This document shows positions 34,068 to 51,455 of a stretch of DNA of 64,000 bases, piece by piece. A model generated the notes under the pieces. That model worked only from the letters and a program-made list of their open reading frames with translations, was not told the DNA's origin and did not search any database. The translations under genes were made by a program, and so were the position numbers. How positions within the stretch are numbered: position 1 is the stretch's first letter; every line of letters starts with the position of its first letter. Source of the stretch: an uncultured Solirubrobacterales bacterium (GTDB lineage: Bacteria > Actinomycetota > Thermoleophilia > Solirubrobacterales > 70-9); assembly GCA_963837695.1 (NCBI GenBank), contig CAWINZ010000005.1, positions 220,155 to 284,154 on the forward strand, given 5' to 3'.

Positions 34068-34097
34068 CGCTAACCGCCTAAGCCTGCCGAGAACTGG

Positions 34098-36184: not shown

Positions 36185-36317
36185 CCCGAGCCCGTGGATC
36201 GGCTGGGCTACGTGGAGCCCAGTTTCAAGCGGTTTCCGGCGAATCGAGTCCCGCTGGGATCGGCTGGAATCTGTGGGGCATGTTGCCCCAATTGTTGCCC
36301 CAGGAGGCTGATTCGGG

Positions 36318-36758
36318 TCACGATCCGGGGAGTTGGACGCACTCGAAGGCGAGGACCTCTGCGAGCTTGTCGAAGTGCGTGTCGCGGTGCAGAACCGCCA
36401 CCCCGCCGTGCTCGGCCGCCGCGGCGGCAACGAGTGCATCCGTGATGGGCACCCGGTGGTATCCGTCGCCGCGCTCGGCCAACTCGCCGACAGCGGCCAT
36501 CGCCGCGTCGGTCACGGCGCGATCGTTGCGAAGGATTCGCAGCGAATCGAGCTCGCTCTCGAGTTCGAGATACTCGGAGCTACTGCGGGCCGAGTAAAGA
36601 ATCTCCATCCGCACAATTGGTGTGATCCAGAGGCGATCGGCAAGGATTGCGTCGTCCACGAGCGAGCGAAGTTCATCGGGAAGCGAGGCGATACGCCACC
36701 ACGCCGAGGTGTCGGCGACGAAGGGCGCATCGCTGCGCAACAACTCCAAGGCGTTCAC
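36318..36758 (-). CDS. vapC: PIN-domain toxin VapC
   Basis: FVADTSAWW (first Asp), EILYSA, and ITDALVAAAAAEHGGVAVLHRDTHFD (last Asp), a typical PIN pattern. Confidence 0.8.
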   Translation of the reverse strand: MNALELLRSDAPFVADTSAWWRIASLPDELRSLVDDAILADRLWITPIVRMEILYSARSSSEYLELESELDSLRILRNDRAVTDAAMAAVGELAERGDGYHRVPITDALVAAAAAEHGGVAVLHRDTHFDKLAEVLAFECVQLPGS

Positions 36759-36765
36759 CGCGCCG

Positions 36766-36933
36766 CTACTGCTCGTGGTCGGTCAGCTGCTCAATCCGCT
36801 TGAGCACGCCGCGGTCCAACCCGTCCGGGCTTTGCAAACGCTTGGCCAGCATGCGCAGCCGCTCGGCGCGCTTCTCCTCGCTCAGCGCCGGCTTCTCCGC
36901 AGTGGGAGTCGTGCTCGGGATCGGATGGCTCAC
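36766..36933 (-). CDS. possible 55-aa antitoxin upstream of vapC
   Basis: Own codon-by-codon translation: VSHPIPSTTPTAEKPALSEEKRAERLRMLAKRLQSPDGLDRGVLKRIEQLTDHEQ. It ends 7 nt before the vapC GTG. Below the ORF-track cutoff. Confidence 0.4.
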   Translation of the reverse strand: MSHPIPSTTPTAEKPALSEEKRAERLRMLAKRLQSPDGLDRGVLKRIEQLTDHEQ

Positions 36934-37001
36934 AGAGCCAGAATAGCGCGCGAGTCCGCTACTTCAGCGCTCCCAGCAAGACTGGCCGATACCTTCTCAG
37001 C

Positions 37002-37226
37002 ATGACCACTCGCGAGAAGCTGGAAAAGCTGCTCGACCGGTTCTCCGAGGACGAGCTGTCGGCGGAGTACGCGCGACTGCGGGAAGTCGTCGCAGGAAAA
37101 CGCCCTGCCGATAACCGGGCCAATCTTGAACAGTTCAGCGCCCGCGCCTCACGCGGCGTTCTCCGCCACATGGCCGAAGACGAAGAAGCGGCGGGACTCT
37201 CCTGGGAGGAGTTCCAGCCGCGGTGA
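37002..37226 (+). CDS. possible antitoxin (74 aa) coupled to a MazF-like fragment
   Basis: Its stop overlaps the next start as GTGA (37223-37226). Acidic and helical. Confidence 0.4.
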   Translation: MTTREKLEKLLDRFSEDELSAEYARLREVVAGKRPADNRANLEQFSARASRGVLRHMAEDEEAAGLSWEEFQPR

Positions 37227-37340
37227 CACGCGGCTGGGTCTGGTGTCACGAGCCGCCAGACAAAAAGCTACGCCCAGCTCTCGTCCTCACGAGCGACGAA
37301 GCCATCAGCGTCGCCAAAAACACCCTTAATCCGACTGCGC
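37223..37340 (+). pseudogene. N-terminal fragment of a PemK/MazF-family toxin
   Basis: TRGWVWCHEPPDKKLRPALVLTSDEAI resembles the RG.iw.v......K.RPalVl MazF N-terminus. The rest of the listed ORF is antisense to the 323-aa gene. Confidence 0.4.
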
Positions 37341-37345
37341 CAGCC

Positions 37346-38317
37346 CTACTCGACCAGTCGCCGCAACTCGTCGGTAAGCCGCTGCTCAAGGTGCCTGATA
37401 GTGGAGTAACTGATGCATCTCTCACTTTGGACATCGAACTTCAGATCGGAACCGTCATGACGCAGCAGCACGGTGGGAACCTCGGCTCCCCAGGCGAATC
37501 CAACCTCCAAGTAGACATTGGGGTTGGCGTCCGTGAGATCCGCGACAACCAGCGTCGCCGAGCGGATTCTCTCCTTGATGCGTTCTGGAATGCTGCCGGT
37601 GAACGCCTGCTCGTCAATCCGCTCGCAGAGCAAGCCGCTCTTGTGCACCGCAGGTTCGATGGCATAGTGGAAGATGTCTTCGAATTCTTGTGAGAAGGGC
37701 ATCGCCACGAACGCATGGTCCCGAGTGGCGGCGGTCGCTTCCGTTGACCGGCGTAGCCCCTTTGAAATCTCGCCCGTGGAAGTGGAAGTCAGTGACCCCG
37801 TCAGGCGCGACGTGGGAATCGCTTCCTCAAGGCGGATGCGAAGCCGCTCGGCGCGCTGCTCGTCCAACTCAACGATAGAAACTCGTTTGAGACTGCCCGC
37901 GGTCCGCCCCTCAATCCCTTCGACAATCCCCGCAAGCTCCGCTTCAAAACAAGCGGCCTCATCCAATCCATAGCCGACTCCGTGCAGGGTCAGGGCCAGG
38001 TCTTGACAGTCTGGAAACTCTGCCACCGCAAGGGATACCGCCCGGCGCCCGAACAGGCGAATCTCCGTGTAGCCGAAATCCGAAAGGGGCGGCACACCCA
38101 AGAAAACCACATTAGATGGCCCTACCTTTTCGGGACTGCGCACCACTAGCTGACCTCCAGGCCGAAGGTCCATCTCTAAATCCAGTCCAAGCCGTTCCTT
38201 TGCCGCCGCATCCACGCCAAGTGAAACCTGGGCGTGCTTGAGTACGAGCACATCGGAGGTGATAGCCAAAACATCGGCCGGGTCGACGTCGATAGCCACT
38301 CCCTGCAACTCCACCAT
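37346..38317 (-). CDS. two-domain cargo protein: unknown N-domain plus nucleoside 2-deoxyribosyltransferase/TIR-like C-domain (defence-effector candidate)
   Basis: 323-aa ORF. The C-terminal HAFVAMPFSQEFEDIF...ATLVVADLTDANPNVYLEVGFAWGAEVPTVLL matches the Rossmannoid pattern F.aMPF ... aDlt..NpNV.yE.GyA.g...p. Confidence 0.7.
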   Translation of the reverse strand: MVELQGVAIDVDPADVLAITSDVLVLKHAQVSLGVDAAAKERLGLDLEMDLRPGGQLVVRSPEKVGPSNVVFLGVPPLSDFGYTEIRLFGRRAVSLAVAEFPDCQDLALTLHGVGYGLDEAACFEAELAGIVEGIEGRTAGSLKRVSIVELDEQRAERLRIRLEEAIPTSRLTGSLTSTSTGEISKGLRRSTEATAATRDHAFVAMPFSQEFEDIFHYAIEPAVHKSGLLCERIDEQAFTGSIPERIKERIRSATLVVADLTDANPNVYLEVGFAWGAEVPTVLLRHDGSDLKFDVQSERCISYSTIRHLEQRLTDELRRLVE

Positions 38318-38402
38318 AGACGGCAGCTTAATCGGTTCTGGATACCCCTGGACCTTTCACTGGATTGTTCCCGGTCGCACACCACAGCTTTACCGCGAGC
38401 GT

Positions 38403-39629
38403 TCAAGACCAAAACGAACCTCTCGCAATGGCGCATTGCGAGACCATTTCCAACGGCGGCGCCTCGTCGCCCGGCAGCAGATGCGTGTAGCGGGTCAGCG
38501 TGAAGGCGGGCGAGTGGTGGCCGAGGGCTCGGCTCAGTTGGAGGAGGTTGGTGCCTTGGCTGAGGTGGAGCGAGGCGAAGGTGTGGCGGAACGTGTGGAA
38601 GCCCGCCCAGGGGGTGCCTGCCTCCTCTGCGAGGGGCTTCAGGACGCGGCGACGGAGGTTGCCCGGGTCGAGCGGGCCTCCGGCTTCGTTGGGGAAGGCG
38701 AGGGCGGTCGAGTCCCGGTCGGGCTGGGCGGCGAGATGGTCGCGCAGGCTCGCCGCCACTGATGCCGGTAGGCGGACCTCGCGTCGGCCGTGCCTGCTCT
38801 TGGGCGGCTCGATCCGCTCGCGGACGATCGCTCGGCGGATGCAGACCTCGGGCTCTGGGCCGTCAAGTTGAAGGTGCAGGCGTTGGAGGGCGATCGCCTC
38901 GCTGATCCGCAGGCCGCAGCTCGCCAGGAGCTCGAAGAGCGGGCGGTGGCGCTCGGGGGCTGTCGCCAGGAGCGCTGAGAGCTGCTCGCGGCTGAAGACC
39001 TTGATCTCCTCGCCCTCGTCCTCGAGCCGCTCGCGCTGGGGCAGCGCGAGGCCCTGAGCGGGGTTGTGGCGGATCAGGCCCTCGCGCTTGGCGGTCGCCA
39101 GGGCGGCGCGGATCGGTATCGCGACGTTGGCGATCGTGCGGTCGCTGAGGCGCTTGCCCTGCTCCTGCTCGTCGGCGAGCCAGTCGAGGAAGCGGGCGAG
39201 CTGGTAGGCGCTCAGCTCGGTGAGCTTCAGCCTGCCGGAGAAATAGCGGCGGGCGTAGATGCGGATCAGGCGCCGGTATTCGTCGCGGGTGTTCTCGCGG
39301 AAGCCCCGGCGGCCCTGGCCCCGATAGCGCTCGACCCACTCCTCCAGGTAGCGCAGGAAGGAGATCGTCGTGCGCTCCTGCAGCTCGCCGCGGTCGCGGT
39401 CGGTCTCGCTCTCGCGCTTGATCCGCTTTGCCTCCTCGTAGGTGCGGGCGCTGCGCTTGCGCTGCCTGCCGGCGCTGCGGAAGACGCAGACGTAGCCGAT
39501 CACGTCGCCGCCGGCGCCGAGCCGCTTGAAGACGCCTGGCGTCTTGGTCTTCTGGAGCCGCCGCTTGTCACCGCAGCCTGGACCGGCCGCAAGGGCCGAC
39601 GTATCCTGGGAAACGCTCATGAGCATCAC
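38403..39629 (-). CDS. int: tyrosine recombinase / phage-type integrase (element E2)
   Basis: The C-terminal catalytic region has GLRISEA, HTFRHTFAS and GHHSPAFTLTRYTHL (R..HxxR..Y). Confidence 0.9.
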   Translation of the reverse strand: MMLMSVSQDTSALAAGPGCGDKRRLQKTKTPGVFKRLGAGGDVIGYVCVFRSAGRQRKRSARTYEEAKRIKRESETDRDRGELQERTTISFLRYLEEWVERYRGQGRRGFRENTRDEYRRLIRIYARRYFSGRLKLTELSAYQLARFLDWLADEQEQGKRLSDRTIANVAIPIRAALATAKREGLIRHNPAQGLALPQRERLEDEGEEIKVFSREQLSALLATAPERHRPLFELLASCGLRISEAIALQRLHLQLDGPEPEVCIRRAIVRERIEPPKSRHGRREVRLPASVAASLRDHLAAQPDRDSTALAFPNEAGGPLDPGNLRRRVLKPLAEEAGTPWAGFHTFRHTFASLHLSQGTNLLQLSRALGHHSPAFTLTRYTHLLPGDEAPPLEMVSQCAIARGSFWS

Positions 39630-39740
39630 CTCGTGAGCCGGGGGCGGGCCGTTAGCGCGGCGCCGCCCCGTTTTGCGTTGTCGGACAAGACGTTAACAGG
39701 AAGATGCGGCCTGTCAGCCTGCTCCAACGATGGAGAGATG

Positions 39741-39812
39741 GGTTCGCTATGGGGTTCGCACTGCGGTTCGCACTGTAGTTCGCACTGCGGTTCGCACTGC
39801 ACTTCGCATGAG
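39741..39812. repeat. six tandem 12-bp repeats (consensus gGTTCGCACTGc) upstream of int
   Basis: Units read directly: ggttcgctatgg, ggttcgcactgc, ggttcgcactgt, agttcgcactgc, ggttcgcactgc, acttcgcatgag. Confidence 0.85.
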
Positions 39813-40008
39813 CCGATGCCGAAACCGAGGCAAAGCCGCATTGGAAGAGGCTTTGCGGCGACCACGCTTTGCTGACTTCTATATGTCGAACTAGCTTCTT
39901 TCCAGATTCGCTGTCGGTTGCCCTCGGGCTCGCGGTCCGTCCGCGTCCGTCAGCCTCGCCGTGGCTCTGCTGATCTTCGCCTGCCGGTCCCCCCGGCGCG
40001 GCTCGTTG

Positions 40009-40305
40009 TCACTCGCCGCGGGTCTGTGCGTCGCTCGACGGCGGGCTGTCGATCTCGTAGCGCCCGTCCCCCGTTCCGACGAAGCTCGGCCTGTAGGAGA
40101 TGCCGTCGAGCAGCTCGGCGGGCGAGACCGAGAGCGCGCCTGCGAGTCTGACGACGACATCCAGGGTGGGGACGTTGATCTGCCGCTCGTATTTCCGGAC
40201 GGCGTCGCGGCTGAGCGAGGCGCGGAGCGCCAGCCCTTCCTGGGTGAGACCCGCACGCTTGCGGAGGCCGATCAGGTTCTCGGCGAAACGGGCCTGGAAG
40301 CTCAC
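40009..40305 (-). CDS. XRE-family helix-turn-helix regulator (second of two)
   Basis: ORF 40009..40371 trimmed to the GTG at 40305, which overlaps the upstream stop as GTGA. FAENLIGLRKRAGLTQEGLALRASLSRDAVRKYERQ is an HTH_3 pattern. Confidence 0.7.
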   Translation of the reverse strand: MSFQARFAENLIGLRKRAGLTQEGLALRASLSRDAVRKYERQINVPTLDVVVRLAGALSVSPAELLDGISYRPSFVGTGDGRYEIDSPPSSDAQTRGE

Positions 40306-40591
40306 GGCGCCTGCTGCGGATCGTCCACCTCGAAGCGGCCCTCCACGACCTCGACGTGTCCGGGCGTCCACTTGAAGCCGGCGAGGAGGTCGCCCACGGG
40401 GACCGAGACAGCGCCCGCGAGCCTGACGATCGTGTCGATCCTCGGCGTCCGCGCTCCCCGCTCCAGCAGCCCGATCGCCGTGCGATGGAGCCCGGCCCGG
40501 TAGCCGAGCTCTTCCTGAGAAGCCCAGCCTGCTCGCGGCAGCGGGCGAGGTTGCGGCCGAACTGGGCGGCGACCTCGGCTGAACGCTTCAA
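40302..40591 (-). pseudogene. XRE-family HTH gene with a -1 frameshift (identical lesion in the sister copy)
   Basis: FGRNLARCREQAGL is in one frame and SQEELGYRAGLHRTAIGLLERGARTPRIDTIVRLAGAVSV is in the next. The junction is at ~40514-40525 and the length is 290 nt. The TTG start overlaps the upstream stop as TTGA. Confidence 0.55.
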
Positions 40592-40977
40592 AGGAGAAGG
40601 CCCTCGGGCACTTCGGCTGGCCCGCCCTTGACCAGCGTGGCGACGATCACGCCGCTGCGGCTCGTGTGCCCGCCCTCGACCGTCCAGCGGTCGCTGATCT
40701 GGCCCGCCGTGAGGACCGGCATGCCGCCGCGCAGCTCCTCGACGTCCCGCCCAGAGCGACCCGCGGGCACTTCGATGAGGCAGGTGGCGCATCTCCAAAG
40801 CGACTGCGGCCGGTCGGGGTCGACCACCGGGAACTCGACCCGCAGGAGGGTCGTGCGCTCCCCGGCCGGATTGCGGCCCTCCTGGGGGTCGGCGCTCAGC
40901 CTGCCGGTGAGGACGGCGTGGTTGATCGCCGGAGGGGTCGATGCGGGCCCCGGCGCCCGGTGCTCTGCGGGACTCAT
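40588..40977 (-). CDS. SSB-like OB-fold protein
   Basis: INHAVLTGRLSADPQ..R.....ER..LLRVEF resembles the N-terminus of single-stranded DNA-binding proteins. Confidence 0.55.
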   Translation of the reverse strand: MSPAEHRAPGPASTPPAINHAVLTGRLSADPQEGRNPAGERTTLLRVEFPVVDPDRPQSLWRCATCLIEVPAGRSGRDVEELRGGMPVLTAGQISDRWTVEGGHTSRSGVIVATLVKGGPAEVPEGLLL

Positions 40978-41378
40978 GCCGAGCCCTGGCGGGTGCGGAG
41001 CTCGAGCAGCAGCTCCGTGCCCGTGTCGAGAGTGAGGTGATAGCGACGGCGGCTAACTTCCTCGTCTTCGCGGGATTCGCGCTCGTCCGGTCGCTCGGTC
41101 AGCGCGCCCCTGGCGTCGGCTCGCAAGCGCTCGAAGATCGCGGCCAGCTCCCCGGACGGGATCGTCAGCGGGATCTCGGAGCGGTCATCGGGACCCCAGC
41201 CGAGGTCGTTGAGCAGACGGAAGTCCTCGGCGAACTCCCTGGCGAGCCGCCCGGCGGTGTCGAAATCCCCGCGGTCGATCGCTATCCGGACGTCTCCGAG
41301 GGCGCCCAGGTGTTCAACAAGGAACCCGTAGACGGCGTCTCGCTTCTCGCCCGTGAGAGTGGCGGTCGGGTGGTGCAT
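40974..41378 (-). CDS. hypothetical 134-aa backbone protein, first gene next to att
   Basis: Good RBS (GGAAGGAGA). Clearly diverged paralogue of 50665..51069. Confidence 0.6.
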   Translation of the reverse strand: MHHPTATLTGEKRDAVYGFLVEHLGALGDVRIAIDRGDFDTAGRLAREFAEDFRLLNDLGWGPDDRSEIPLTIPSGELAAIFERLRADARGALTERPDERESREDEEVSRRRYHLTLDTGTELLLELRTRQGSA

Positions 41379-41690
41379 GGCGTCTCCTTCCGGTCGGGCA
41401 CCGAAAGAGCCGCCAGGGATGCCGCCGTCAGAACGCCACGGCGGTACCGTCTCTCTCGCATCGAAGGCTCGTACTTCGGTGCCGGCCCCGGGGCGTTAGC
41501 GCGCTGCCGGGGCGCTTCTTATTCGCGTTTGCGCGGCGAACGTAGGTGGACCGGGAACCCAGCGCAAGGCCTGGGATCGAACCTCACTCCGACCTCATGT
41601 TGCCCCAGGCGTTGCCCCAGCGGCAATCTCGCACTGTTCGAGTGACCCTCGAAAAGCCGCAATCCCGCTTCACAAGCGGGATTGCCGGAG

Positions 41691-41732
41691 CGCGCCCGAC
41701 AGGATTCGAACCTGTGACCTTCGGTTTCGTAG
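41691..41732 (-). repeat. att repeat R3: tRNA-Arg 3'-half copy flanked by both conserved arms
   Basis: 42 nt identical to 51382..51423. The arm 41596-41690 is identical in layout to 51287-51381. Confidence 0.85.
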
Positions 41733-41896
41733 CCTGACCCCGCAGACCCGCTGGGCTACGTGGAGCCCGGATTCAAGCGGTTTCCGGCGAATCGAGCTAC
41801 GTGGAGATCGGCTGGAATCCGTGGGGCTGCTTGCCCCATTTCTTGCCCCAGGGACCGAACGGAGTTAGCTTCGTCCCTGGCCGATACCATGAGGAC

Positions 41897-42085
41897 ATGG
41901 CTCATGCCACCAAGGCAGATGAATCCGTCGCCAAGCGCCGCCGCGCGGCGGCTGAGGAGATGCGCGGCATGTTTGCCCATGTCGCTCCCGGGGTGAGCTT
42001 GGCAGACGAGCTAATCGCCGACCGTCGAGCCGAGGTCCGCTCAGAAGAGCGGGCAGAGGCCGAGCGGCGACGTGCCAACGGCTGA
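41897..42085 (+). CDS. possible VapB-type antitoxin (62 aa)
   Basis: ORF 41801..42085 trimmed to MAHATKAD, because the upstream part lies in the att arm. Overlaps the vapC start. Confidence 0.45.
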   Translation: MAHATKADESVAKRRRAAAEEMRGMFAHVAPGVSLADELIADRRAEVRSEERAEAERRRANG

Positions 42086-42494
42086 GACCCCGGCGTCGAT
42101 TCTCGACGCCTCAGCACTGCTCGCCCTGCTCCAAGATGAGCCAGGAGCCGCCGCGGTGGTCGAGGCAATCGAAGCTGGCGCCGCCATCAGCACCGTCAAC
42201 CTCTCTGAGGTGCTGGCCAAGCTGGCCGAGCGAGGAGAGCATGTGCGGTCGACTATGGCCACGATCGGGCAAGCCGTCGACCAGGCCGACGGCGGGCTTC
42301 GGATCGAGCCCTTCACGGAAGAGGACGGCATCGAGGCCGCAGACCTCCGACCACGCTCAAAGAGCCAAGGCCTGTCCTTCGGCGACCGGGCGTGCCTCGC
42401 CCTGGCCGCCCGCTTCGAGGTGCCGGCGGTCACAGCGGATGGAGACTGGGCCGACCTGCCGAAAGTCGGAGTCGCCGTCAAGCTGATCCGGTGA
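42072..42494 (+). CDS. vapC: PIN-domain toxin VapC
   Basis: ILDASALLALLQDEPG (first Asp), NLSEV, and SFGDRACLALAARFEVPAVTADGDW, a typical PIN pattern. Confidence 0.8.
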   Translation: MPTAETPASILDASALLALLQDEPGAAAVVEAIEAGAAISTVNLSEVLAKLAERGEHVRSTMATIGQAVDQADGGLRIEPFTEEDGIEAADLRPRSKSQGLSFGDRACLALAARFEVPAVTADGDWADLPKVGVAVKLIR

Positions 42495-42751
42495 CCGACA
42501 CCCGCTCGCGAAAATCGGCTAACCGGGAAAAGACCCTTGGACCGACCCACGATCCCCAGCCTGGTGACTTCGACGCCGAACTTGACCACCCCCGCCCCGA
42601 TCAGATTGAGATCCACAAGGGCAACCCCGACGCAAAGCTCTCGATCCTCGTCAGCGTCGAGGGCGACGACGCCAAGCGCCTAGAGCGAATCGCCACCGAG
42701 CGCGGCCAGCAACCCGGCGAGGTCGTCTCCCGGCTCCTACGCAGCGCCTGA
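42491..42751 (+). CDS. small protein with ribbon-helix-helix-like C-terminus
   Basis: GTG at 42491 overlaps the vapC stop as GTGA. The C-terminal DDAKRLERIATERGQQPGEVVSRLLRSA is CopG/RHH-like. Confidence 0.4.
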   Translation: MTDTRSRKSANREKTLGPTHDPQPGDFDAELDHPRPDQIEIHKGNPDAKLSILVSVEGDDAKRLERIATERGQQPGEVVSRLLRSA

Positions 42752-42787
42752 GCCTTCCAAAGAGCTTCGGATGCGACCGGCAGCAGT

Positions 42788-42940
42788 CCCGACCTGTGAC
42801 CTTCGGTTTCGCACTTGGACGGTCCGATTCGTAGCCCGAGCCGGGGGATCGGTTGGGCTACGTGGGGCGCGACTTCAATCGGTTTTCGGTCGATCGAGTC
42901 CCGCTGGGATCGGTTGGGCTACGTGGGGCATGTTGCCCAG
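42788..42940 (-). repeat. degenerate att plus arm (R4)
   Basis: cccgac[deletion]ctgtgaccttcggtttcg, then an 18-nt insertion, then cgtagcccgagcc..ggttgggctacgtgggg..catgttgccc. Recognisably related to R1-R3 plus the arm. Confidence 0.55.
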
Positions 42941-43099
42941 TGCGTGCTCGGCCGAGCTTTGGCTCTGCTGCCCTTCGAGCCACACGGATAGGTCCGCCCC
43001 AGTCAGGAAATCAGCGTGTGAGGTCAAGACAGGGCTCGGATGCAAGGCACGAGATCAATGTAGTGGCGGCCGGCGCCGGCAAGCGCGTCGACTGGCCAG

Positions 43100-45247
43100 C
43101 TAAGCCGCCAGGGACCAGAGATTCCAATCTCCGGCCCCCTTCAACTCTAGCTTGCCCATTTTGGCCCAGTCGAAATCGTGGGCGTTGATCCTGACCCGAT
43201 CATCCGTTACCACCAGGTTCGGCCGCGCCTGATCGCAAATGCGAGCCGCGACGTCCACATCGCGGCCGCGGAGATTTCCGAATTGATCCTTTCTCGCCAC
43301 ACCTTTGGTGAGGCCGGCCCGCGCCACGAGCTTGTCGCTGCCCGGATCAATGACCAAGTCCCTAAGGCACTTGATCGCAGCCATCGGCTCCTCAAATGCA
43401 AGAAGAAAGCCGTCTCCCGTGTCGTTGATGCGCATGCCCTTGTATTTCTTGAGGAGGCTGCGCATGCGCTTCTCGTGTGCGTTCCACTCCAGGGCATAGG
43501 CTTTCTCACCAAGCCGTCCCTTCGCATCCGTTGCACCGGTGAGATCGGTGAACGCGATCACCGTCTCCACCTCTTCAGTGGATGCAAGATCTGAAGCGTC
43601 GTAGGACCGCGAGGCTACATAGGTGATGAACTGCGATTTGTCCGCCCTTCCTTTCGCCGACAGGTTGTGGAAGGACTTCACACTGCGAAACCCCGACTCT
43701 TCAAGCAAGCCGACAAGCTGTTTGCGTTTGAACGGCAGCACGTCGAACGTCCCGACTGGCTTTCCGCTGCTTGAGCGGATGTACTCAAGCGTTAGGACGT
43801 CGTTGTCGATACCGGGCAACTCTGGCATGCTCTTCGGTCGCGCCCGAATCGTGTTGCTGCAGTAGACCACGCGTCCCGGAAAGCGAAAGTCCGGCTTCGC
43901 CATCTGCCGACGCTCGTCGAACATCGTCGGGTAATTGCGCTCATCGACGATCAACAACCCTTCCGGTCGCAGTAGGTAGGCAAAGCGCGTCAGAACCGCT
44001 CGCACGTCGCTGACCGTGCGCAGGCAGCTCAACGAGTTGCCCAAGGCTAAAAGTATGTCGAAAGTCTCTGGCTCGGCCAGATGCTCAAAGTGGCGCCAAT
44101 CAAAGCGGGTCAGGCTGAGGGGCGACCCGCCTTCCCGCTCCGAAAGCTCGGTCGCATGTGCGATCAGCCTCGCATCGATCTCGTTCGAGACAACCCGGTG
44201 CCCTTTGGAAAGCAGGTACGCCGAATCGCAGCCGACCCCGGTGGCGGCGTCGAGGACTGTCGCCTGAGCGAGGCCAATTTCCTCGATCCTGGCCTCCACG
44301 AACGGGCCCAGTTTGGTTACCCTTCTTTCAGGCGCAACAAACTCGTCCCAGACGTCTGCGAGTAGCGGCTCGAACATGCTGTCGAGGCTCCAGAGGATGT
44401 GCTCCTGCAGATCCGTTGGCACGTCGTCGGTAACAATCGTGTCATTGTTGAGGCTGACCAGTTCCGCTTGTTCGACGAGGCGGGCCACGTATCGCAGATA
44501 TGCCCGGAACCTGTCATCGAAGGGGTAGACAAGCTCCAAACGCAATCTGTTGTTGTTCGGCTTGACGTTTTCCTCAAAAAGCAGTGCGCAGGTGTTCACC
44601 CACAGGCCGAGATCACCGGTCCACTCTTCGTTCAGGACAGCATCGTGAATCAGCGCGTGCTTCTGGGGCTCGATGCACAGAGGGGTGATGTGGTGCCGTT
44701 TGTGCTCTTGAAAATATCGCCTGGCAAGGTCCGGATTACTGTCGAAATCCGCCTGCAGCGCCTTTACGGATTGGGGGATGATTCTCACGGACCTGGGAGC
44801 GTGGCACTCATGATGCGCAACAGTTGAAGAGAGATCGTCGTGGTCCTCGGGATCGCCCTCTGCGAGGTTGCCAAGCAGAAAGGGGTGGACCTGGAGAAAG
44901 CGACTCGGTGGGTGCGAGTCCACCCCGATGTAGATGTCTTGGATGGTGCTGTAGAACAGCGAGACGACGGCCTCCATCTGGTGGAGCGGAATCCGGATCT
45001 CCTGCTGTGCAGGGATGGCGTCGCCTTTCCCTCTGAGCAGGTCGACGAGCTGCTGCCCTGAGTTATCGAGGAACGCCTCCATGATCTCCTCTGCGACTCG
45101 CTGGTCATGGGCGATGGGACGCCGTCGCCCATTGGGAATCTCGATGCCGAGCTTCGACAACAGTTCAATGAACCGGAGCTCCAGTTTGGAGGAAGATTCT
45201 TTGTCTCGTCGAGAGTCAGACATAAAACACAGAAGTTCGTTTACCAA
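43100..45247 (-). CDS. three-module fusion protein: unknown N-domain, GNMT-like class I SAM methyltransferase, class III nucleotide cyclase
   Basis: MTase motifs: VLDAATGVGCDS, VVSNEID, FDILLALGNSLSCL, RPEGLLIVDERNY. Cyclase motifs: VIAFTDLTGAT, INDTGDGFLLAF, ARAGLTKG, GRDVDVAARI, ELKGAG. The listed start is TTG; the ATG at 45223 (MSDSRRDK) is the likelier start. Confidence 0.85.
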   Translation of the reverse strand: MVNELLCFMSDSRRDKESSSKLELRFIELLSKLGIEIPNGRRRPIAHDQRVAEEIMEAFLDNSGQQLVDLLRGKGDAIPAQQEIRIPLHQMEAVVSLFYSTIQDIYIGVDSHPPSRFLQVHPFLLGNLAEGDPEDHDDLSSTVAHHECHAPRSVRIIPQSVKALQADFDSNPDLARRYFQEHKRHHITPLCIEPQKHALIHDAVLNEEWTGDLGLWVNTCALLFEENVKPNNNRLRLELVYPFDDRFRAYLRYVARLVEQAELVSLNNDTIVTDDVPTDLQEHILWSLDSMFEPLLADVWDEFVAPERRVTKLGPFVEARIEEIGLAQATVLDAATGVGCDSAYLLSKGHRVVSNEIDARLIAHATELSEREGGSPLSLTRFDWRHFEHLAEPETFDILLALGNSLSCLRTVSDVRAVLTRFAYLLRPEGLLIVDERNYPTMFDERRQMAKPDFRFPGRVVYCSNTIRARPKSMPELPGIDNDVLTLEYIRSSSGKPVGTFDVLPFKRKQLVGLLEESGFRSVKSFHNLSAKGRADKSQFITYVASRSYDASDLASTEEVETVIAFTDLTGATDAKGRLGEKAYALEWNAHEKRMRSLLKKYKGMRINDTGDGFLLAFEEPMAAIKCLRDLVIDPGSDKLVARAGLTKGVARKDQFGNLRGRDVDVAARICDQARPNLVVTDDRVRINAHDFDWAKMGKLELKGAGDWNLWSLAA

Positions 45248-45414
45248 ACTGGCGGAGTTGCGGCAATCTAACGCATGAAGCCGACGACCACACGTCTGCG
45301 AATGGCCTCAGGCCTATCTAAGCCAGCGCATCACTCAGCTTGGCGCGGCAAGGATGGACGCGGTCTGCTTAACACTTAGCCAAGGCCACAAGTTGCGGCT
45401 GATCCCTCGGAAGA

Positions 45415-47415
45415 TCAATTTTTATCCTCGCTGGTTGCCGGGGCAAACCAGTGCCGCAGGGTCCGCCTCACACGCGGGGTTAGATTGGCGGCAAGCCAGG
45501 CGCGAGCAACCAAGAAATTCCAACCGGTCACAAGGCTGACGACGCCGCTGAGGGTAAGGAGGAACACAAGTCCCGAGCCGAGGGGAACTAGCTTTGACCA
45601 CGATGAGGGAAAGAGGCCCTGGGCGGCTGCGGCACAGGCGGCGATAAGCAGCAAGAGGGCGAATCCAAAGGCCGTCCACGAGATCGCGGAAGCCAACTGG
45701 TCGGCACGAGCGTCGAGACGGTCGGCGTGGCGGGTGGCGACGCGCTCGGCCCGCGCAGCCTCGGCGCTCGCGCGATCCTTTTCGGCCGCTACGGCGGCGT
45801 CGGAACGCTTGCGAAGCGCTCGCTCCCGCTTAAGCTCGTCCTCCACCTCCGCCCGCGCTGCCTGCTCGGCACGACGAAGAACCTCAGTGATGGTGCCAGC
45901 AGCGACAGCCTCAACGTCGCCGTCGGTGGCATTCATCAACTCGAGGCGGGCATCAGGCGAGAACAGCAGGAGACCGACCTGCTCCTCGCTAAGCTCGCCG
46001 CGCTCTTGTAGACGGCGGATCTCGGTCAGGTATTTGCGCCAGACATCCTCAGGCGGATTCAGGGCCGCATAGCTGATTGCGATGATCTGCCGACGAGGAA
46101 GATCAGAGGCTTGCGATGGGTTCATCAGCCAGACGATTGCGGCAAGGCTGTAGTCAGACATGCAGACCGGCACTGAACGGTGCCCGAAAATCTCGGCGAA
46201 GAAGGCGCGAGAGACGTGAGCTAGCGTGGTGTTGGTCGTAACAAGCAGCGCGTCGGCGCTCTCGATGTGGCGGCGAACCTCACCGCTGCGAAGCCGATAG
46301 ATCGCAGCCAGGGAGTCGAGATCCTTGACCATGGTGCCGTGAAGACGGTAGTGGACGCCATCTTTCAACGCCCTTCCCAACTCCTTCTCCGAAAGTTCAA
46401 TCTCTTCCGTGCGCTCGGGCGTGCCGACAACTTCGATCGCACGAGCGTCGAGCCGTTCGCTGAGCGCCGCGATGTCCATCTCGACATCGCTGCGGCTTAG
46501 GCTCTTCGACGCGAAGTAGTCGACCACATCGCCAGGGACATGGTCCTTCTTTCGTCCGGTGCGGTAGGTAGCAGCCGCGCCATCGAGGACTCCCTCGACC
46601 TCATGCAGGGTGTGCTCGAAGATGCGCAGCTTGGCGTCCTCTCCCGCCAGCAAGTCAACCAGTTCTTCGACCGGCTCCCTGTACTGCTCCTCGGCGTATC
46701 CCAGTGCGCGCAGAACGACTGGCGTATCGAGGTAGACCTCAACATCGGACAAGCGAGCACGGCCACCCGAGAACGTCTCCGGCAGAAAAAGAACGTTGGC
46801 CAACATGGATCCCTTGACAATCGTCGCCAAGTACTCGAAGGCCTGCGGCTCCTTGTGACAAAGATCGAGGACGAACCGACTGGTGACAACCGCGCCCTCG
46901 GACTCGATCTTAGGCAGCTCGACGACCGGTTCGCCGTCCACCACCGCGCCAAGTACCGGCTCAGCGAGAACCTCGACGTAGCCGAGTAGGGCCCGCTCAG
47001 CCTGCTCCTCGCTCCACTCGCGCCCCACGCCAGCAGCGAAATCGACCAGGAGGCCAACCAGATGGTTGTGCTGGCGGACAACATCTTCCCGCTCGGAGCC
47101 GAGGTCGAACTCGCGCAAAGCCTCCGGAATGCGTTCATAGGCACCGTGGCGACGACGAAGCAACCCATCGCGGGACATGCGGCCAAGGATCGTCTGCAGG
47201 GCACCCTGCGGGATGTGAAGGCCGAAGTCGCTGGCAACCAAAGCCTTGGTGTCGGGCAACGAAATCTTCTCGTGCTCCCCGCGGCGAATGCAGTCAGCGA
47301 CAATCGGGACGAAGTTGGCTATGTAGTCCTTGTCCTCATCCCAGTTGACCTTGATCACGGCCAAGGCCGAAATCGCCTTGAGAAGATCCACTGGAAGCAC
47401 GGCGGGCGCACTCAT
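45415..47415 (-). CDS. 666-aa protein of unknown function with Ala/Arg/Glu-rich coiled coil and two C-terminal TM helices (effector candidate)
   Basis: Long clean ORF in lower-GC DNA. The C-terminus has AISWTAFGFALLLLIAACAAAAQGLF and LVPLGSGLVFLLTLSGVVSLVTGW. Confidence 0.8.
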   Translation of the reverse strand: MSAPAVLPVDLLKAISALAVIKVNWDEDKDYIANFVPIVADCIRRGEHEKISLPDTKALVASDFGLHIPQGALQTILGRMSRDGLLRRRHGAYERIPEALREFDLGSEREDVVRQHNHLVGLLVDFAAGVGREWSEEQAERALLGYVEVLAEPVLGAVVDGEPVVELPKIESEGAVVTSRFVLDLCHKEPQAFEYLATIVKGSMLANVLFLPETFSGGRARLSDVEVYLDTPVVLRALGYAEEQYREPVEELVDLLAGEDAKLRIFEHTLHEVEGVLDGAAATYRTGRKKDHVPGDVVDYFASKSLSRSDVEMDIAALSERLDARAIEVVGTPERTEEIELSEKELGRALKDGVHYRLHGTMVKDLDSLAAIYRLRSGEVRRHIESADALLVTTNTTLAHVSRAFFAEIFGHRSVPVCMSDYSLAAIVWLMNPSQASDLPRRQIIAISYAALNPPEDVWRKYLTEIRRLQERGELSEEQVGLLLFSPDARLELMNATDGDVEAVAAGTITEVLRRAEQAARAEVEDELKRERALRKRSDAAVAAEKDRASAEAARAERVATRHADRLDARADQLASAISWTAFGFALLLLIAACAAAAQGLFPSSWSKLVPLGSGLVFLLTLSGVVSLVTGWNFLVARAWLAANLTPRVRRTLRHWFAPATSEDKN

Positions 47416-47614
47416 AACGCGCGCCCTCTTGCCGCGACGATGCGCTCGCTAAAGCTCACACGACCCCTTCCCGCCTTCAAGGCACAGACCCTCCCCGAAT
47501 GTCATTTTTCCCAGGCAGCCAGGCTACGCGGCATCAGGACTTCGAGCGTTCTCGTACCTGCAATTTCCGGTACTTAATTGATCCGGTCCCGACGCTCTGC
47601 GACGCCAAACGCAG

Positions 47615-48829
47615 TCAAGGCTCTTCGCCACGGCGTCGGTGCGACAGATCGAGCGCCGGCGCCTCGTCGCCGGGCAGCAGATGCGTGTAGCGGGTCAGCG
47701 TGAAGGCGGGCGAGTGGTGGCCGAGGGCTCGGCTCAGTTGGAGGAGGTTGGTGCCCTGGGCCAGATGGAGCGAGGCGAAGGTGTGGCGGAACGTGTGGAA
47801 GCCCGCCCATGGGGCGCCTGCCTCCTCTGCGAGGGGCTTGAGGACGCGGCGACGGAGGTTGCCCGGGTGGAGCGGGCCTCCGGCCTCATTGGGGAAGGCG
47901 AGGGCGGTCGAGTCCTGATCGGGCTGGGCGGCGAGATGGTCGCGCAAGCTCGCCGCCACCGATGCCGGTAGGCGGACCTCGCGTCGGCCGTGCCTGCTCT
48001 TGGGCGGCTCGATCCGATCGCGGACGATGGCGCGGCGGATGCAGACCTCGGGCTCGGGGCCGTCAAGCTGAAGGTGCAGGCGCTGGAGGGCGAGCGCCTC
48101 GCTGATCCGCAGGCCGCAGCTCGCCAGGAGCTCGAAGAGCGGGCGGTGGCGCTCGGGGGCTGTCGCCAGGAGCGCTGAGAGCTGCTCGCGGCTGAAGACC
48201 TTGATCTCCTCGCCCTCGTCCTCGAGCCGCTCGCGCTGGGGCAGCGCGAGGCCCTGAGCGGGGTTGTGGCGGATCAGGCCCTCGCGCTTGGCGGTCGCCA
48301 GGGCGGCGCGGATCGGTATCGCGACGTTGGCGATCGTGCGGTCGCTGAGGCGCTTGCCCTGCTCCTGCTCGTCGGCGAGCCAGTCGAGGAAGCGGGCGAG
48401 CTGGTAGGCGCTCAGCTCGGTGAGCTTCAGCCTGCCGGAGAAATAGCGGCGGGCGTAGATGCGGATCAGGCGCCGGTATTCGTCGCGGGTGTTCTCGCGG
48501 AAGCCCCGGCGGCCCTGGCCCCGATAGCGCTCGACCCACTCCTCCAGGTAGCGCAGGAAGGAGATCGTCGTGCGCTCCTGCAGCTCGCCGCGGTCGCGGT
48601 CGGTCTCGCTCTCGCGCTTGATCCGCTTTGCCTCCTCGTAGGTGCGGGCGCTGCGCTTGCGCTGCCTGCCGGCGCTGCGGAAGACGCAGACGTAGCCGAT
48701 CACGTCGCCGCCGGCGCCGAGCCGCTTGAAGACGCCTGGCGTCTTGGTCTTCTGGAGCCGCCGCTTGTCACCGCAGCCTGGACCGGCCGCAAGGGCCGAC
48801 GTATCCTGGGAAACGCTCATGAGCATCAC
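47615..48829 (-). CDS. int: tyrosine recombinase / phage-type integrase (element E3b)
   Basis: Differs from the E2 integrase by six substitutions plus a different C-terminal tail. Confidence 0.9.
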   Translation of the reverse strand: MMLMSVSQDTSALAAGPGCGDKRRLQKTKTPGVFKRLGAGGDVIGYVCVFRSAGRQRKRSARTYEEAKRIKRESETDRDRGELQERTTISFLRYLEEWVERYRGQGRRGFRENTRDEYRRLIRIYARRYFSGRLKLTELSAYQLARFLDWLADEQEQGKRLSDRTIANVAIPIRAALATAKREGLIRHNPAQGLALPQRERLEDEGEEIKVFSREQLSALLATAPERHRPLFELLASCGLRISEALALQRLHLQLDGPEPEVCIRRAIVRDRIEPPKSRHGRREVRLPASVAASLRDHLAAQPDQDSTALAFPNEAGGPLHPGNLRRRVLKPLAEEAGAPWAGFHTFRHTFASLHLAQGTNLLQLSRALGHHSPAFTLTRYTHLLPGDEAPALDLSHRRRGEEP

Positions 48830-48940
48830 CTCGTGAGCCGGGGGCGGGCCGTTAGCGCGGCGCCGCCCCGTTTTGCGTTGTCGGACAAGACGTTAACAGG
48901 AAGATGCGGCCTGTCAGCCTGCTCCAACGATGGAGAGATG

Positions 48941-49012
48941 GGTTCGCTATGGGGTTCGCACTGCGGTTCGCACTGTAGTTCGCACTGCGGTTCGCACTGC
49001 ACTTCGCATGAG
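48941..49012. repeat. six tandem 12-bp repeats (same array as 39741..39812)
   Basis: Identical sequence at an offset of 9200 nt. Confidence 0.85.
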
Positions 49013-49070
49013 CCGATGCCGAAACCGAGGCAAAGCCGCATTGGAAGAGGCTTTGCGGCGACCACGCTTT

Positions 49071-49723
49071 GCTGACTTCTATATGTCGAACTAGCTTCTT
49101 TCCAGATTCGCTGTCGGTTGCCCTCGGGCTCGCGGTCCGTCCGCATCCGTCAGCCTCGCCGTGGCTCTGCTGATCTTCGCCTGCCGGTCCCCCCCGGCGC
49201 GGCTCGTCGTCACTCGCCGCGCGTCGCCCCCATCCGGCTCCGACGCGGTTTCCGCTGGGGTTTACCCAGACGTTGACACCGGGGTTGCCCGTGCGGTTGA
49301 CACAGCCGATCGACCGGGGACGTGCGAAGCCGCCTGTGGCGCGGCGTTGCGACGACTCCCGTTCGCTGACATCTATTTGTCGAACCGATCAAGCGGGAGG
49401 CCTGCCAGCGGCAGTCAGAGCGCTTCGTTGCATGCTCGTCTTGCGGCTCGTTTCGTGGCTCGTTTCGTAGCTCGTTTCGTAGCTCGTTTCGTAGCTCGTT
49501 TCGTGGCTCGCACGAACCGGAGTCGGTGGCGGCGCAAAGTCGCTTGCCATCTGGCATTGCGGCCGTGCCGCTTCGCTGACATCTATCTGTGGAACTAGCT
49601 TCTTTCCAGATTCGCTGTCGGTTGCCTCAGGCTCGCGGACCGTCCGCGTCCGTCAGCCTCGCCGTGGCTCTGCTGATCTTCGCCTGCCGGTCCCCCCGGC
49701 GCGGCTCGTTGTCACTCGCCGCG
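49071..49723. repeat. ~150-bp direct repeats (49071-49221 and 49575-49723) bracketing a ~350-bp insert absent from E2
   Basis: Both copies align to the single E2 segment at ~39871-40021 (gctgac.tctat.tgt.gaactagcttctttccagattcgctgtcggttgcc...). Confidence 0.8.
49445..49516. repeat. second, different 12-bp tandem array ((g/a)GCTCGTTTCGT x5 plus one degenerate unit)
   Basis: Units read directly: ggctcgtttcgt x2, agctcgtttcgt x3, ggctcgcacgaa. Confidence 0.85.
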
Positions 49724-50008
49724 GGTCTGTGCGTCGCTCGACGGCGGGCTGTCGATCTCGTAGCGCCCGTCCCCCGTTCCGACGAAGCTCGGCCTGTAGG
49801 AGATGCCGTCGAGCAGCTCGGCGGGCGAGACCGAGAGCGCGCCTGCGAGTCTGACGACGACATCCAGGGTGGGGACGTTGATCTGCCGCTCGTATTTCCG
49901 GACGGCGTCGCGGCTGAGCGAGGCGCGGAGCGCCAGCCCTTCCTGGGTGAGACCCGCACGCTTGCGGAGGCCGATCAGGTTCTCGGCGAAACGGGCCTGG
50001 AAGCTCAC
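49712..50008 (-). CDS. XRE-family HTH regulator (identical to 40009..40305)
   Basis: The listed ORF 49712..50074 is identical in protein sequence to the E2 copy. Trimmed in the same way. Confidence 0.7.
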   Translation of the reverse strand: MSFQARFAENLIGLRKRAGLTQEGLALRASLSRDAVRKYERQINVPTLDVVVRLAGALSVSPAELLDGISYRPSFVGTGDGRYEIDSPPSSDAQTRGE

Positions 50009-50294
50009 GGCGCCTGCTGCGGATCGTCCACCTCGAAGCGGCCCTCCACGACCTCGACGTGTCCGGGCGTCCACTTGAAGCCGGCGAGGAGGTCGCCCAC
50101 GGGGACCGAGACAGCGCCCGCGAGCCTGACGATCGTGTCGATCCTCGGCGTCCGCGCTCCCCGCTCCAGCAGCCCGATCGCCGTGCGATGGAGCCCGGCC
50201 CGGTAGCCGAGCTCTTCCTGAGAAGCCCAGCCTGCTCGCGGCAGCGGGCGAGGTTGCGGCCGAACTGGGCGGCGACCTCGGCTGAACGCTTCAA
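50005..50294 (-). pseudogene. XRE-family HTH gene with the same -1 frameshift as 40302..40591
   Basis: Same DNA at an offset of 9703 (cttcctgagaagcccagcct at 50211-50230). Confidence 0.55.
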
Positions 50295-50668
50295 AGGAGA
50301 AGGCCCTCGGGCACTTCGGCTGGCCCGCCCTTGACCAGCGTGGCGACGATCACGCCGCTGCGGCTCGTGTGCCCGCCCTCGACCGTCCAGCGGTCGCTGA
50401 TCTGGCCCGCCGTGAGGACCGGCATGCCGCCGCGCAGCTTCTCGACCTCCCGCCGACCCGCCGGGACTTCGACCAGGCAGCTCGCGCAGCGCCACAGCGA
50501 GCGCGGGCAGTCGGGGTCGGTCACTGGGAACTCGATCCGCAGAAGCGTCACGCGCTCGCCCACGGGGCTGCGGCCCTCCTGAGGGTCGGCGCTCAGCCTG
50601 CCGGTGAGGACGGCGTGGTTGATCTCGGGCGGCCCTCCCGTGGGGAGCGGAGCGCTGCCCGCGATCAC
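50291..50668 (-). CDS. SSB-like OB-fold protein (mosaic paralogue of 40588..40977)
   Basis: The C-terminal half is identical to the E2 copy. The N-terminal half is diverged and 4 aa shorter. Confidence 0.55.
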   Translation of the reverse strand: MIAGSAPLPTGGPPEINHAVLTGRLSADPQEGRSPVGERVTLLRIEFPVTDPDCPRSLWRCASCLVEVPAGRREVEKLRGGMPVLTAGQISDRWTVEGGHTSRSGVIVATLVKGGPAEVPEGLLL

Positions 50669-51069
50669 TCCGCTTCCTCGCGCCTGCGGATCTCGAGCAG
50701 CACTTCGGCGCCCGCGTCGAGGACCAACTCGTAGCGCTGACGATTGGCCTCGTCGACCTCGCGGGCCTCATGCTCGTCCGCCGACTCGCCCAGGGCGCCC
50801 TGGGCGTCGCCGCGCAGCCGGTTCATGATCGCCGTCAACTCGCCGGGCGGAATCGTCAGCGGGACCGCTATGCGCTCGTCCGGTCCCCAGCCGATGTCAT
50901 CGAGCAGGCGGAAGTCCTCGGCGAACTCCCTGGCAAGCCGCCTGGCGGTTTCGACGTCCCCGCGGTCGATTGCTATCCGCACGTCTCCGAGGCCGCCCAA
51001 ATGCTCAATCAGGAGCTCGTGGACGGCATCTCGTTTCTTGCCGGTGATCACTGCGACCACCTCGGTCAT
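50665..51069 (-). CDS. hypothetical 134-aa backbone protein (diverged paralogue of 40974..41378)
   Basis: ORF trimmed to MTEVVAVITGKKRD, which follows the RBS GGAAGGAGA. Confidence 0.6.
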   Translation of the reverse strand: MTEVVAVITGKKRDAVHELLIEHLGGLGDVRIAIDRGDVETARRLAREFAEDFRLLDDIGWGPDERIAVPLTIPPGELTAIMNRLRGDAQGALGESADEHEAREVDEANRQRYELVLDAGAEVLLEIRRREEAE

Positions 51070-51349
51070 GGCGTTCTCCTTCCGGTCGGGCACCGAAAGA
51101 GCCGCCGCGGATGCCGCCCCCATAGGGCTACGGCGGTACCGTCTCTCCCGCATCGAAGGTGATCCCTTCGGTGCCGGCCCCGGGGCGTTTGCGCGCTGCC
51201 GGGGCGCTTTTCTTCAGTTGTCGCGGCCGAACGTAGGTGGACGGGAGCGCCGTCTCAAGGCCCGCCGCCGACCCTCGCTCGCTTCTCATGTTGCCCCAGG
51301 CGTTGCCCCAGCGGCAATCTCGCACTGTTCGAGTGACCCTCGAAAAGCC

Positions 51350-51376
51350 GCAATCCCGCTTCACAAGCGGGATTGC
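51350..51376 (-). terminator. 10-bp stem hairpin just downstream of tRNA-Arg (element-borne; also present at R2 and R3)
   Basis: gcaatcccgc / ttcacaa / gcgggattgc read directly. Confidence 0.5.
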
Positions 51377-51381
51377 CGGAG

Positions 51382-51455
51382 CGCGCCCGACAGGATTCGA
51401 ACCTGTGACCTTCGGTTTCGTAGACCGACGCTCTATCCAACTGAGCTACGGGCGC
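51382..51455 (-). tRNA. tRNA-Arg (anticodon ACG), integration target
   Basis: Hand-folded 74-nt cloverleaf: acceptor GCGCCCG/CGGGCGC, anticodon arm TCGGT-CTACGAA-ACCGA, T arm ACAGG-TTCGAAT-CCTGT. CCA is not encoded. Confidence 0.9.

Follow-up and report, generated by a model that had tools for sequence, protein, structure and literature searches.

An Rv1900c-type cyclase homology domain with a family-specific pocket in a three-domain protein from a Solirubrobacterales genomic island

The 64,000-nucleotide stretch of DNA analysed here, hereafter the window, comes from an uncultured Solirubrobacterales bacterium (contig CAWINZ010000005.1, positions 220,155 to 284,154). It contains an intact open reading frame (ORF) at 43100..45247 on the minus strand that encodes a protein of 715 aa, the C-terminus of which (43100-43630) was singled out in a preliminary description as an atypical nucleotidyl cyclase. 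The protein consists of a domain of PLD fold without the HKD motif, a glycine/sarcosine N-methyltransferase-like domain and a class III cyclase homology domain (CHD), in this order. What is new here is a CHD of the Rv1900c type whose N/N/D/R pocket is specific to the family and which is part of a three-domain architecture, located on mobile or defence islands, that had not been described before. Judging from the sequence, we see about an even chance that the protein is a sensor-gated and active member of the Rv1900c/Ma1120 cyclase subclass carried as cargo of a mobile island, with cyclic AMP (cAMP) as the product or a relaxed purine specificity being favoured.

The cyclase domain and its active-site pocket

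The CHD, of the Rv1900c/Ma1120 type, covers residues 555-713 (43109..43585, on the minus strand, as are all codons given below) and was delimited by PDB matches and model superposition. The single sequence finds the CHD of Rv1900c (PDB 1ybt) at an E-value of 6.1e-14, and a profile of nine sequences finds it at 6.6e-28, Ma1120 at 1.7e-22 and Rv1264 at 2.3e-8. In the predicted model of the full-length protein (pLDDT 80) the domain superimposes on 1ybu_B with a TM-score of 0.92 and a root mean square deviation (rmsd) of 1.4 over 161 columns, and on 4wpa (Ma1120) with a TM-score of 0.92. The domain is a class III nucleotidyl cyclase homology domain.

The active-site residues were placed using HMMER alignments to Rv1900c and Ma1120 (the five best PDB alignments), which are free of gaps around the motifs. 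All four motifs quoted in the preliminary description are found in the translation of the ORF, i.e. AFTDLTG (residues 565-571, 43535-43555), RINDTGDG (606-613, 43409-43432), TGDGF (610-614, 43406-43420) and GRDVDVAARI (661-670, 43238-43267). Asp568 in AFTD (43544..43546) and Asp612 in GDG (43412..43414) fall on the two metal-binding Asp residues of Rv1900c and Ma1120, and both are Asp in 23/23 rows of the family alignment A1. Asn608 (43424..43426) stands at the canonical purine-specifying Lys site, where Ma1120 has Lys (VVKSQGDG) and Rv1900c has Asn (EVNTAGDG), and Asp665 (43253..43255) stands at the transition-state Asn site, where Rv1900c has His (VAVHIGAR) and Ma1120 has Ala. These two deviations had been read by eye and are confirmed by the alignments. 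A further one had been overlooked: the second specificity site is Asn658 (43274..43276), aligned with the Asp of both Rv1900c (GTDVAG) and Ma1120 (GDDLFG). The specificity pair Asn608/Asn658 is thus neither Lys/Asp (ATP) nor of the Glu/Cys type (GTP), and the transition-state Asn-Arg pair is incomplete, since Arg669 (43241..43243) is kept and the Asn site is Asp665. Lys703 in the motif ELKGAG (43139..43141) is Lys or Arg in 20/22 family rows, and we take it to be the C-terminal phosphate-binding Lys/Arg of class III cyclases. The corresponding pocket residues of Rv1900c, whose letters come from the alignments, are presumably Asn342, Asp395 and His402 in the numbering of that protein.

In short, the alignments to Rv1900c and Ma1120 show neither the canonical Lys/Asp and Asn at these positions nor the loss of a metal Asp, and the metal- and phosphate-handling core is complete and conserved in a fold of the Rv1900c/Ma1120 type. 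An active enzyme is plausible in view of this core.

Rv1900c (LipJ, Mycobacterium tuberculosis, PDB 1YBT/1YBU) is the best match of the CHD in both sequence and structure. The two domains have in common an Asn at the Lys site, a residue other than Asn at the transition-state site and the retained metal Asp pair and Arg. They differ at the second specificity site, which is Asp in Rv1900c and Asn658 in the window protein, and in the residue at the transition-state site (His versus Asp665); moreover, Rv1900c has an alpha/beta-hydrolase N-terminus, as opposed to the PLD-fold and methyltransferase domains. The window protein falls outside LipJ itself, as the NCBIfam LipJ model (NF058673) gives 61.2 bits against a cut-off of 800 and covers residues 555-713 only. 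Ma1120 (Mycobacterium avium, PDB 4WP3/4WP8/4WP9) belongs to the same CHD subclass and likewise lacks the transition-state Asn, but it has the canonical Lys/Asp specificity pair and is an enzyme of the single-domain type. According to PMC4886424, His replaces Asn in Rv1900c, for which adenylyl as well as guanylyl cyclase activity has been reported. Ma1120 carries Ala at the Asn site and yet is active as an adenylyl cyclase, and the A164N substitution destroys its activity (PMC4215837). Because similar changes occur in proven adenylyl cyclases, the odd active-site residues of the window CHD are, taken alone, no indication of an exotic product. In other words, activity, the first half of the earlier proposal of an active enzyme with a non-standard product, is plausible, and the step from the odd residues to a non-standard product is weak.

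Within the family the pocket was tallied position by position (counts are from the 22-23 rows of A1; the metagenomic loci L006 and L008/L009 lie outside this alignment). Position 608 is Asn in 21, Thr in 1 and Gln in 1 row (n=23), position 658 is Asn in 17, Lys in 4 and Ser in 1 (n=22), and position 665 is Asp in 20, His in 1 and Ser in 1 (n=22). Arg is found at position 669 in 22/22 rows, and position 703 is Lys in 10, Arg in 10, Pro in 1 and Glu in 1 (n=22). The most divergent pocket is that of the L003 member, with Gln/Ser/Ser and DDG replacing GDG. At the Lys, second specificity, Asn and Arg sites, respectively, L006 reads N/D/D/R, whereas L008 and the near-identical L009 read K/D/N/R, i.e. 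the textbook adenylyl-cyclase signature, in a full-length homologue (46% identity). This homologue suggests that the family descends from, or still includes, ordinary adenylyl-cyclase-type pockets. In the tree L006 and L008 form a supported clade and the four basal lineages are not resolved; the only outgroup (P0025) is on a very long branch, and the change from K/D/N to N/N/D is not polarised. K/D/N is the likely ancestral state in the family because K and D predominate among outgroup CHDs.

The wider CHD neighbourhood was sampled by a profile search of 1.84 billion representative proteins, which gave 41,364 matches at E<=0.001. The best 150 were aligned to the profile, and the comparison covers the 148 proteins among them that lie outside the family, which give 162 fully aligned CHD rows. 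At the Lys site these rows have Lys in 116, Asp in 18 and Asn in 11 cases, i.e. Asn is a minority state that is already known. The second specificity site is Asp in 118, Glu in 13, Lys in 11 and Asn in 10 rows, and the Arg site is Arg in 157. At the transition-state Asn site we find His 59, Asn 47, Gln 15, Val 10, Ala 7, Ile 7 and Asp 5. The Asn is therefore absent in 115/162 rows, so its loss is the rule in this CHD neighbourhood and deviations are common in this subclass. What is peculiar is the N/N/D/R combination, which is family-specific. The nearest non-family CHDs (P0030-P0047) belong to proteins of ~350 aa with two tandem CHDs that score 30-66 bits on the PADLOC PycC models, and they may be related to the tandem-domain (clade A) PycC cyclases.

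The N-terminal domains and the distribution of the family

The PLD-like domain (residues 56-295, 44363..45082) was recognised by structure comparison; no family matched these residues in the Pfam, NCBIfam or PADLOC scans, and the ESM Atlas search with the N-domain gave no usable match. Its predicted model (pLDDT 77) aligns in VIA-align with Z 10.9 both to FAM83B DUF1669 and to NucT (rmsd 3.0-3.3 over 145-147 residues). All 28 of the 28 chains at Z>=5 are PLD-fold proteins, the next ones being at about Z 4, and Foldseek returns the same families. The predicted fold thus places the domain in the PLD superfamily. Reading alignments A1 and A3 by eye, we found no conserved His-x-Lys of the catalytic HxK(x)4D motif; His182 is the only conserved His and no conserved Lys follows it. 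Known PLD-fold domains without the catalytic HKD, i.e. FAM83 DUF1669 and the TrmB sugar-binding domain, match residues 56-295 in fold with Z 10.9 to 9.6. They share no detectable sequence similarity with the window domain (4-12% identity), which, unlike them, carries a conserved motif of its own, Y-x-G-x-D-S. The domain is a candidate ligand- or nucleic-acid-binding sensor.

The middle domain (residues 296-549, 43601..44362) is a glycine/sarcosine N-methyltransferase-like, S-adenosylmethionine (SAM)-binding domain according to PDB, Foldseek and hidden Markov model matches. Residues 296-547 match PDB 5gwx at E 2.5e-19, and Foldseek finds 5him at E 1.1e-16 with a TM-score of 0.82. Pfam Methyltransf_25 gives 31.7 bits, and NCBIfam NF051855 gives 98.1 bits against a cut-off of 350, i.e. 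the equivalog score is not reached. The whole fold of glycine sarcosine N-methyltransferase (GSMT, PDB 5GWX) is aligned with the middle domain, and the GxGxG, LGNS and D-x-R-N-Y motifs are common to it and the GSMT/glycine N-methyltransferase (GNMT) enzymes. The window domain differs from these in that the His of GNS-x-x-H is an invariant Cys408 in the family, and in that it is fused to other domains at both ends. The motifs DAAxGxG, NEI, DWRH, LGNS and DER are invariant across the family, and no other part of the protein is as well conserved: the mean pairwise identity among 20 full-length members is 0.64 for the methyltransferase, 0.55 for the PLD-like domain and 0.53 for the CHD. The CHD is conserved about as well as the other domains of the protein.

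The 715 codons (followed by a stop) are counted from a TTG at 45245-45247; an ATG at codon 9 (45221-45223) is an alternative start. The database version of the protein (P0002) has 660 aa and begins at M56. The 55 residues before M56 (45083-45247, minus strand) are conserved in most homologues in A1, e.g. in the motif L-E-x-R-F-x-x-L-L, and the 660-aa version is therefore probably too short, the real start being the TTG at 45247 or the ATG at 45223.

Members of the family are very rare and patchily distributed. Among 5.8 billion proteins, a word-indexed search gave 27 matches. Besides the window protein, these are 22 proteins that share its architecture (46-84% identity), the relative P0025 (569 aa), in which just the PLD-like and methyltransferase parts are present, and three large cyclases of the STAND type that match through the CHD alone. 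The family thus comprises 23 close protein clusters in 5.8 billion proteins; in the library of 1.84 billion representatives just 3 score above 200 bits and the next falls to 150 bits. The genome collection (185,579 species) contains 2 family loci and the metagenome collection 8 loci with the full architecture, plus 9 further ones with the methyltransferase alone or with the PLD-like and methyltransferase parts. The scan of IMG/VR viral contigs with the family alignment found no relatives. Relatives that are partial or lack the CHD occur at L011, L013, L015, L016 and L017; at L011 and L016 the PLD-like and methyltransferase parts are separate adjacent ORFs, and at L011, L015 and L017 the relatives adjoin ABC-importer genes (SBP_bac_8, permeases, ATPase). 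L015 also carries McrBC. The occurrence of the PLD-like and methyltransferase module without the CHD and beside ABC importers shows that it has a function of its own.

A fusion of methyltransferase and cyclase of this kind was not found in the literature searched, as far as the accessible texts go, which included PMC13069673 and a 2026 preprint on the Pucsar systems (10.64898/2026.08.12.744502). In the available text of that preprint the word "methyltransferase" has 0 occurrences, and the accessions of its Table S1 could include members of the family; the accessible text of PMC2447327 contains neither "Rv1900c" nor "methyltransferase".

Genomic neighbourhoods

The neighbourhoods were compared at the 10 homologue loci with the full architecture (L001-L010). 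The GC content at third codon positions (GC3) of the gene is below that of its flanks in most loci, e.g. 0.54 versus ~0.84 in L001 and 0.57 versus ~0.90 in L007, and the gene appears to move as a single gene. Mobile and defence genes recur nearby. L001 is flanked by an integrase, a helix-turn-helix (HTH) gene, a TrwC relaxase and a serine recombinase; L009 has Vsr, a type II restriction enzyme and a C5 methylase as neighbours, L010 has AbiEi, and L005 has a weak KwaB-like protein with a score under the cut-off. At L008/L009 a co-directional gene downstream encodes a 260-aa protein with two transmembrane (TM) segments that is unrelated to PycTM.

At L003 a convergent gene for a 191-aa PycTM-type protein (5364-5939, minus strand) lies 26 bp downstream of the family member. 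The protein matches Pfam PycTM with E 1.2e-18 and 67.9 bits (cut-off 27.2) and PADLOC PycTM with E 2.1e-26. The next gene (6094-7563, minus strand) encodes a two-TM protein with a BTAD domain. No second cyclase, PycC-type or other, was seen among the ORFs of this 9-kb contig.

In the window the GC content is ~70% and drops to 0.60-0.63 across 42-48 kb. The 3' part of a tRNA-Arg(ACG) gene (51381-51455) is present in five copies, at 33238, 36162, 41710, 42792 and 51401. Two near-identical integrase/HTH backbones are found at 38403-40371 and 47615-50074, arrays of a 12-bp repeat lie at 39729-39820 and 48929-49020, and a different array lies at 49434-49510. The tRNA repeats, the twin backbones and the repeat arrays together indicate tandem integrative islands at one tRNA gene (33238-51455). 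The cyclase gene and the gene upstream of it take the place of the cargo, with the att-like copy at 42792 on one side and the integrase at 47615-48829 on the other. A scan of 42700-47700 found 0 promoter-like and 3 terminator-like sites, which is not above shuffled sequences. As for other genes of the islands, a cargo ORF of the neighbouring island (37346-38317, minus strand) matches a PADLOC TIR effector model with E 5.1e-13 over residues 211-313. PIN-domain ORFs are found at 36318-36758 and 42072-42494, the latter being preceded by a small ORF (41801-42085) to form a VapBC-like pair.

The upstream gene (45415-47415, minus strand) encodes a 666-aa protein with two C-terminal TM segments that has no Pfam, NCBIfam or PADLOC family and no PycTM or cyclic nucleoside monophosphate (cNMP)-binding match. 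It belongs to a separate and wider family of hypothetical proteins of ~650-690 aa (62 clusters). The Atlas holds look-alike clusters from Bacteroidota and Pseudomonadota, and one homologue carries PF27949. The viral-contig scan with this protein found no relatives. We considered the fusion protein and the 666-aa TM protein as a conserved two-gene system and rejected this, as a 666-aa homologue is absent at the 10 homologue loci; tblastn found nothing in the genome loci L001/L002, nor was the protein found in 400 other genomes sampled from the phylum. A functional pairing of the two in this one island is conceivable.

The host genome (2.79 Mb, 94.6% complete) has three other CHD genes and three proteins with a cNMP-binding domain, 0 of them within the window. 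PycTM was not found in it.

Possible functions of the fusion protein

The reading that we prefer, an active cyclase gated by its N-terminal domains, would work as follows. The CHD would dimerise head to tail, as in its solved relatives, and would turn a nucleoside triphosphate (NTP) into the 3',5'-cyclic NMP and pyrophosphate. The product would most likely be cAMP, perhaps with relaxed purine selectivity. This is a preference and not a result; cAMP or relaxed purine specificity is favoured because the nearest enzymes with similar deviations are adenylyl cyclases, because a sister member has the canonical K/D/N/R and because Asn can both donate and accept hydrogen bonds. The PLD-like and methyltransferase domains may gate the cyclase by binding SAM and/or a carboxylate-bearing amine, or a phage cue. 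The gene would spread horizontally and on its own, as cargo of integrative or defence islands, and its signal might be read either by membrane effectors that are encoded nearby and vary between loci, or by cNMP receptors of the host itself. A homodimer prediction for the CHD (2 copies, alignment A2, residues 15-175), run without controls, scored 0.11 against a mark of 0.42 and speaks neither for nor against a dimer.

Several observations weigh against this reading. Asn occupies both specificity sites in just 1/162 neighbouring CHDs (P0089), and N/N/D/R occurs in 0/162, being confined to the family. N608 and N658 remove both adenine-reading residues of the canonical enzymes and, with such a pair so rare, purine specificity is a guess. 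In canonical enzymes the Asn provides a hydrogen bond to the ribose, for which Asp665 cannot act as donor. Pfam PF00211 scores 17.0 bits on the window CHD, below its cut-off of 21.9, and it is absent from the precomputed Pfam domains of the proteins of this architecture listed in the 27-match search. Apart from the near-identical pair L008/L009, the 10 homologue loci have no conserved neighbour in common, and hence there is no defined receptor. Two of these loci have no mobile or defence genes adjoining: in L002 the gene lies between recA and cinA, and in L007 between a thioredoxin-reductase-like gene and greA. Finally, the medians of dN/dS per domain (0.14-0.29) are only indicative, as dS is saturated and the ratio is defined for 7-9 of 36 pairs.

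The preliminary description had raised a pyrimidine cNMP as in Pycsar as one possibility. A Pycsar-like or otherwise non-canonical signalling system, in which the substrate chosen by the Asn/Asn/Asp pocket would be a pyrimidine or another unusual NTP and the product would act on a membrane effector in an abortive-infection system, is in our view doubtful. The L003 member, with its adjoining PycTM-type gene and no other cyclase in sight, speaks for it, and so do the rarity of the N/N pair and the TM proteins encoded next to other members, i.e. downstream in L008/L009 and upstream in the window. The antiphage PycC/PucC cyclases indeed have in common with the window CHD the class III fold, the metal Asp pair and non-canonical base-reading residues, and with its family the location in defence islands. 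According to PMC11224242, PycC enzymes likewise have non-Lys residues near the second metal Asp, namely R142/Q144 before D146 in EaPycC and D94/R97 in BcPycC. The family pocket residues, however, match neither of these PycC patterns. The window protein has no match to PADLOC PycC at E<=0.1, and among the scanned family members only L007/P0011 reach 27 bits, which is the level of a generic CHD, as the LipJ-like CHD P0052 scores 29 bits. The uridylate cyclase 8jsz, the sole PycC in the PDB search, is found with E 1.4, as opposed to the 6.6e-28 of Rv1900c. On sequence grounds the Pycsar idea fails. A PycTM or CNBD-TIR effector is lacking at the window locus and is found at 1/10 homologue loci (L003), whose family member has the most divergent pocket and so may be a poor guide to the window protein. 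Between the three TM neighbours BLAST finds no homology (at 1e-5), only that of L003 matches PycTM, no effector is conserved across the family, and PycTM was not found in the window's own genome. Moreover, a large N-terminal module of PLD-fold and methyltransferase domains is not described for the PycC/PucC systems in the texts accessible. Through the L003 neighbour, a Pycsar-like role may still hold for at least part of the family; according to the Pucsar preprint, diversification of the cyclases related to Pycsar has led to cGMP as a product, with TM effectors (Pucsar). More speculative, and quite improbable in our estimate, is an undescribed antiphage enzyme in which the PLD-fold and GNMT-like domains would sense infection, e.g. 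as a change in SAM or a methyl-acceptor metabolite, and would switch on the cyclase, whose Asn/Asn/Asp pocket would make a signal other than plain cAMP/cGMP. This might be a pyrimidine cNMP, a nucleotide that is methylated or positively charged, or a conjugate of SAM and a nucleotide. Membrane effectors that are interchangeable would read it, with PycTM in L003 and the unrelated two-TM proteins elsewhere as candidates.

It is also conceivable, though unlikely, that the CHD makes no cNMP and serves as a module for dimerisation or nucleotide sensing, the methyltransferase-like part being the real catalyst. Of the six canonical positions for catalysis or specificity three deviate, conservation is highest in the methyltransferase domain, and the PLD-like and methyltransferase module exists without the CHD in P0025 and L013/L015/L016 and stands by ABC importers in L011/L015/L017. 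On the other hand, the metal Asp pair, the GDG turn, R669 and Lys/Arg 703 are kept despite divergence to 46% identity, which would not be expected had catalysis been lost, and active relatives carry comparable substitutions. That the protein is an ordinary enzyme of physiological cAMP signalling, with an N-terminus that senses metabolites, and is unconnected with phage defence and on islands only by chance appears just as unlikely. Actinobacterial genomes encode many CHDs that are fused to enzyme-like domains, such as the alpha/beta-hydrolase of Rv1900c (according to PDB titles); the host's further CHD and CNBD proteins, the housekeeping genes around L002 and L007 and the importers beside the CHD-less relatives would all fit. 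What speaks against it is the great rarity and patchiness of the family in the genome collection and in both protein libraries, the GC3 that is atypical with respect to the flanks, and the integrases, relaxase, recombinases, restriction-modification genes, AbiEi and PycTM that recur nearby.

If the CHD is active, the family would bring a new input architecture to class III cyclases, i.e. a PLD-fold domain together with a small-molecule methyltransferase-like domain. The family is also a natural test set for the Lys/Asp/Asn positions and substrate choice, as it has K/D/N/R (L008) beside N/N/D/R members. If the product is plain cAMP, the protein would be an ordinary, though rare, mobile cyclase. 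If the link of L003 to PycTM is functional, Pycsar/Pucsar-type immunity would extend to sensor-fused cyclases in Actinomycetota.

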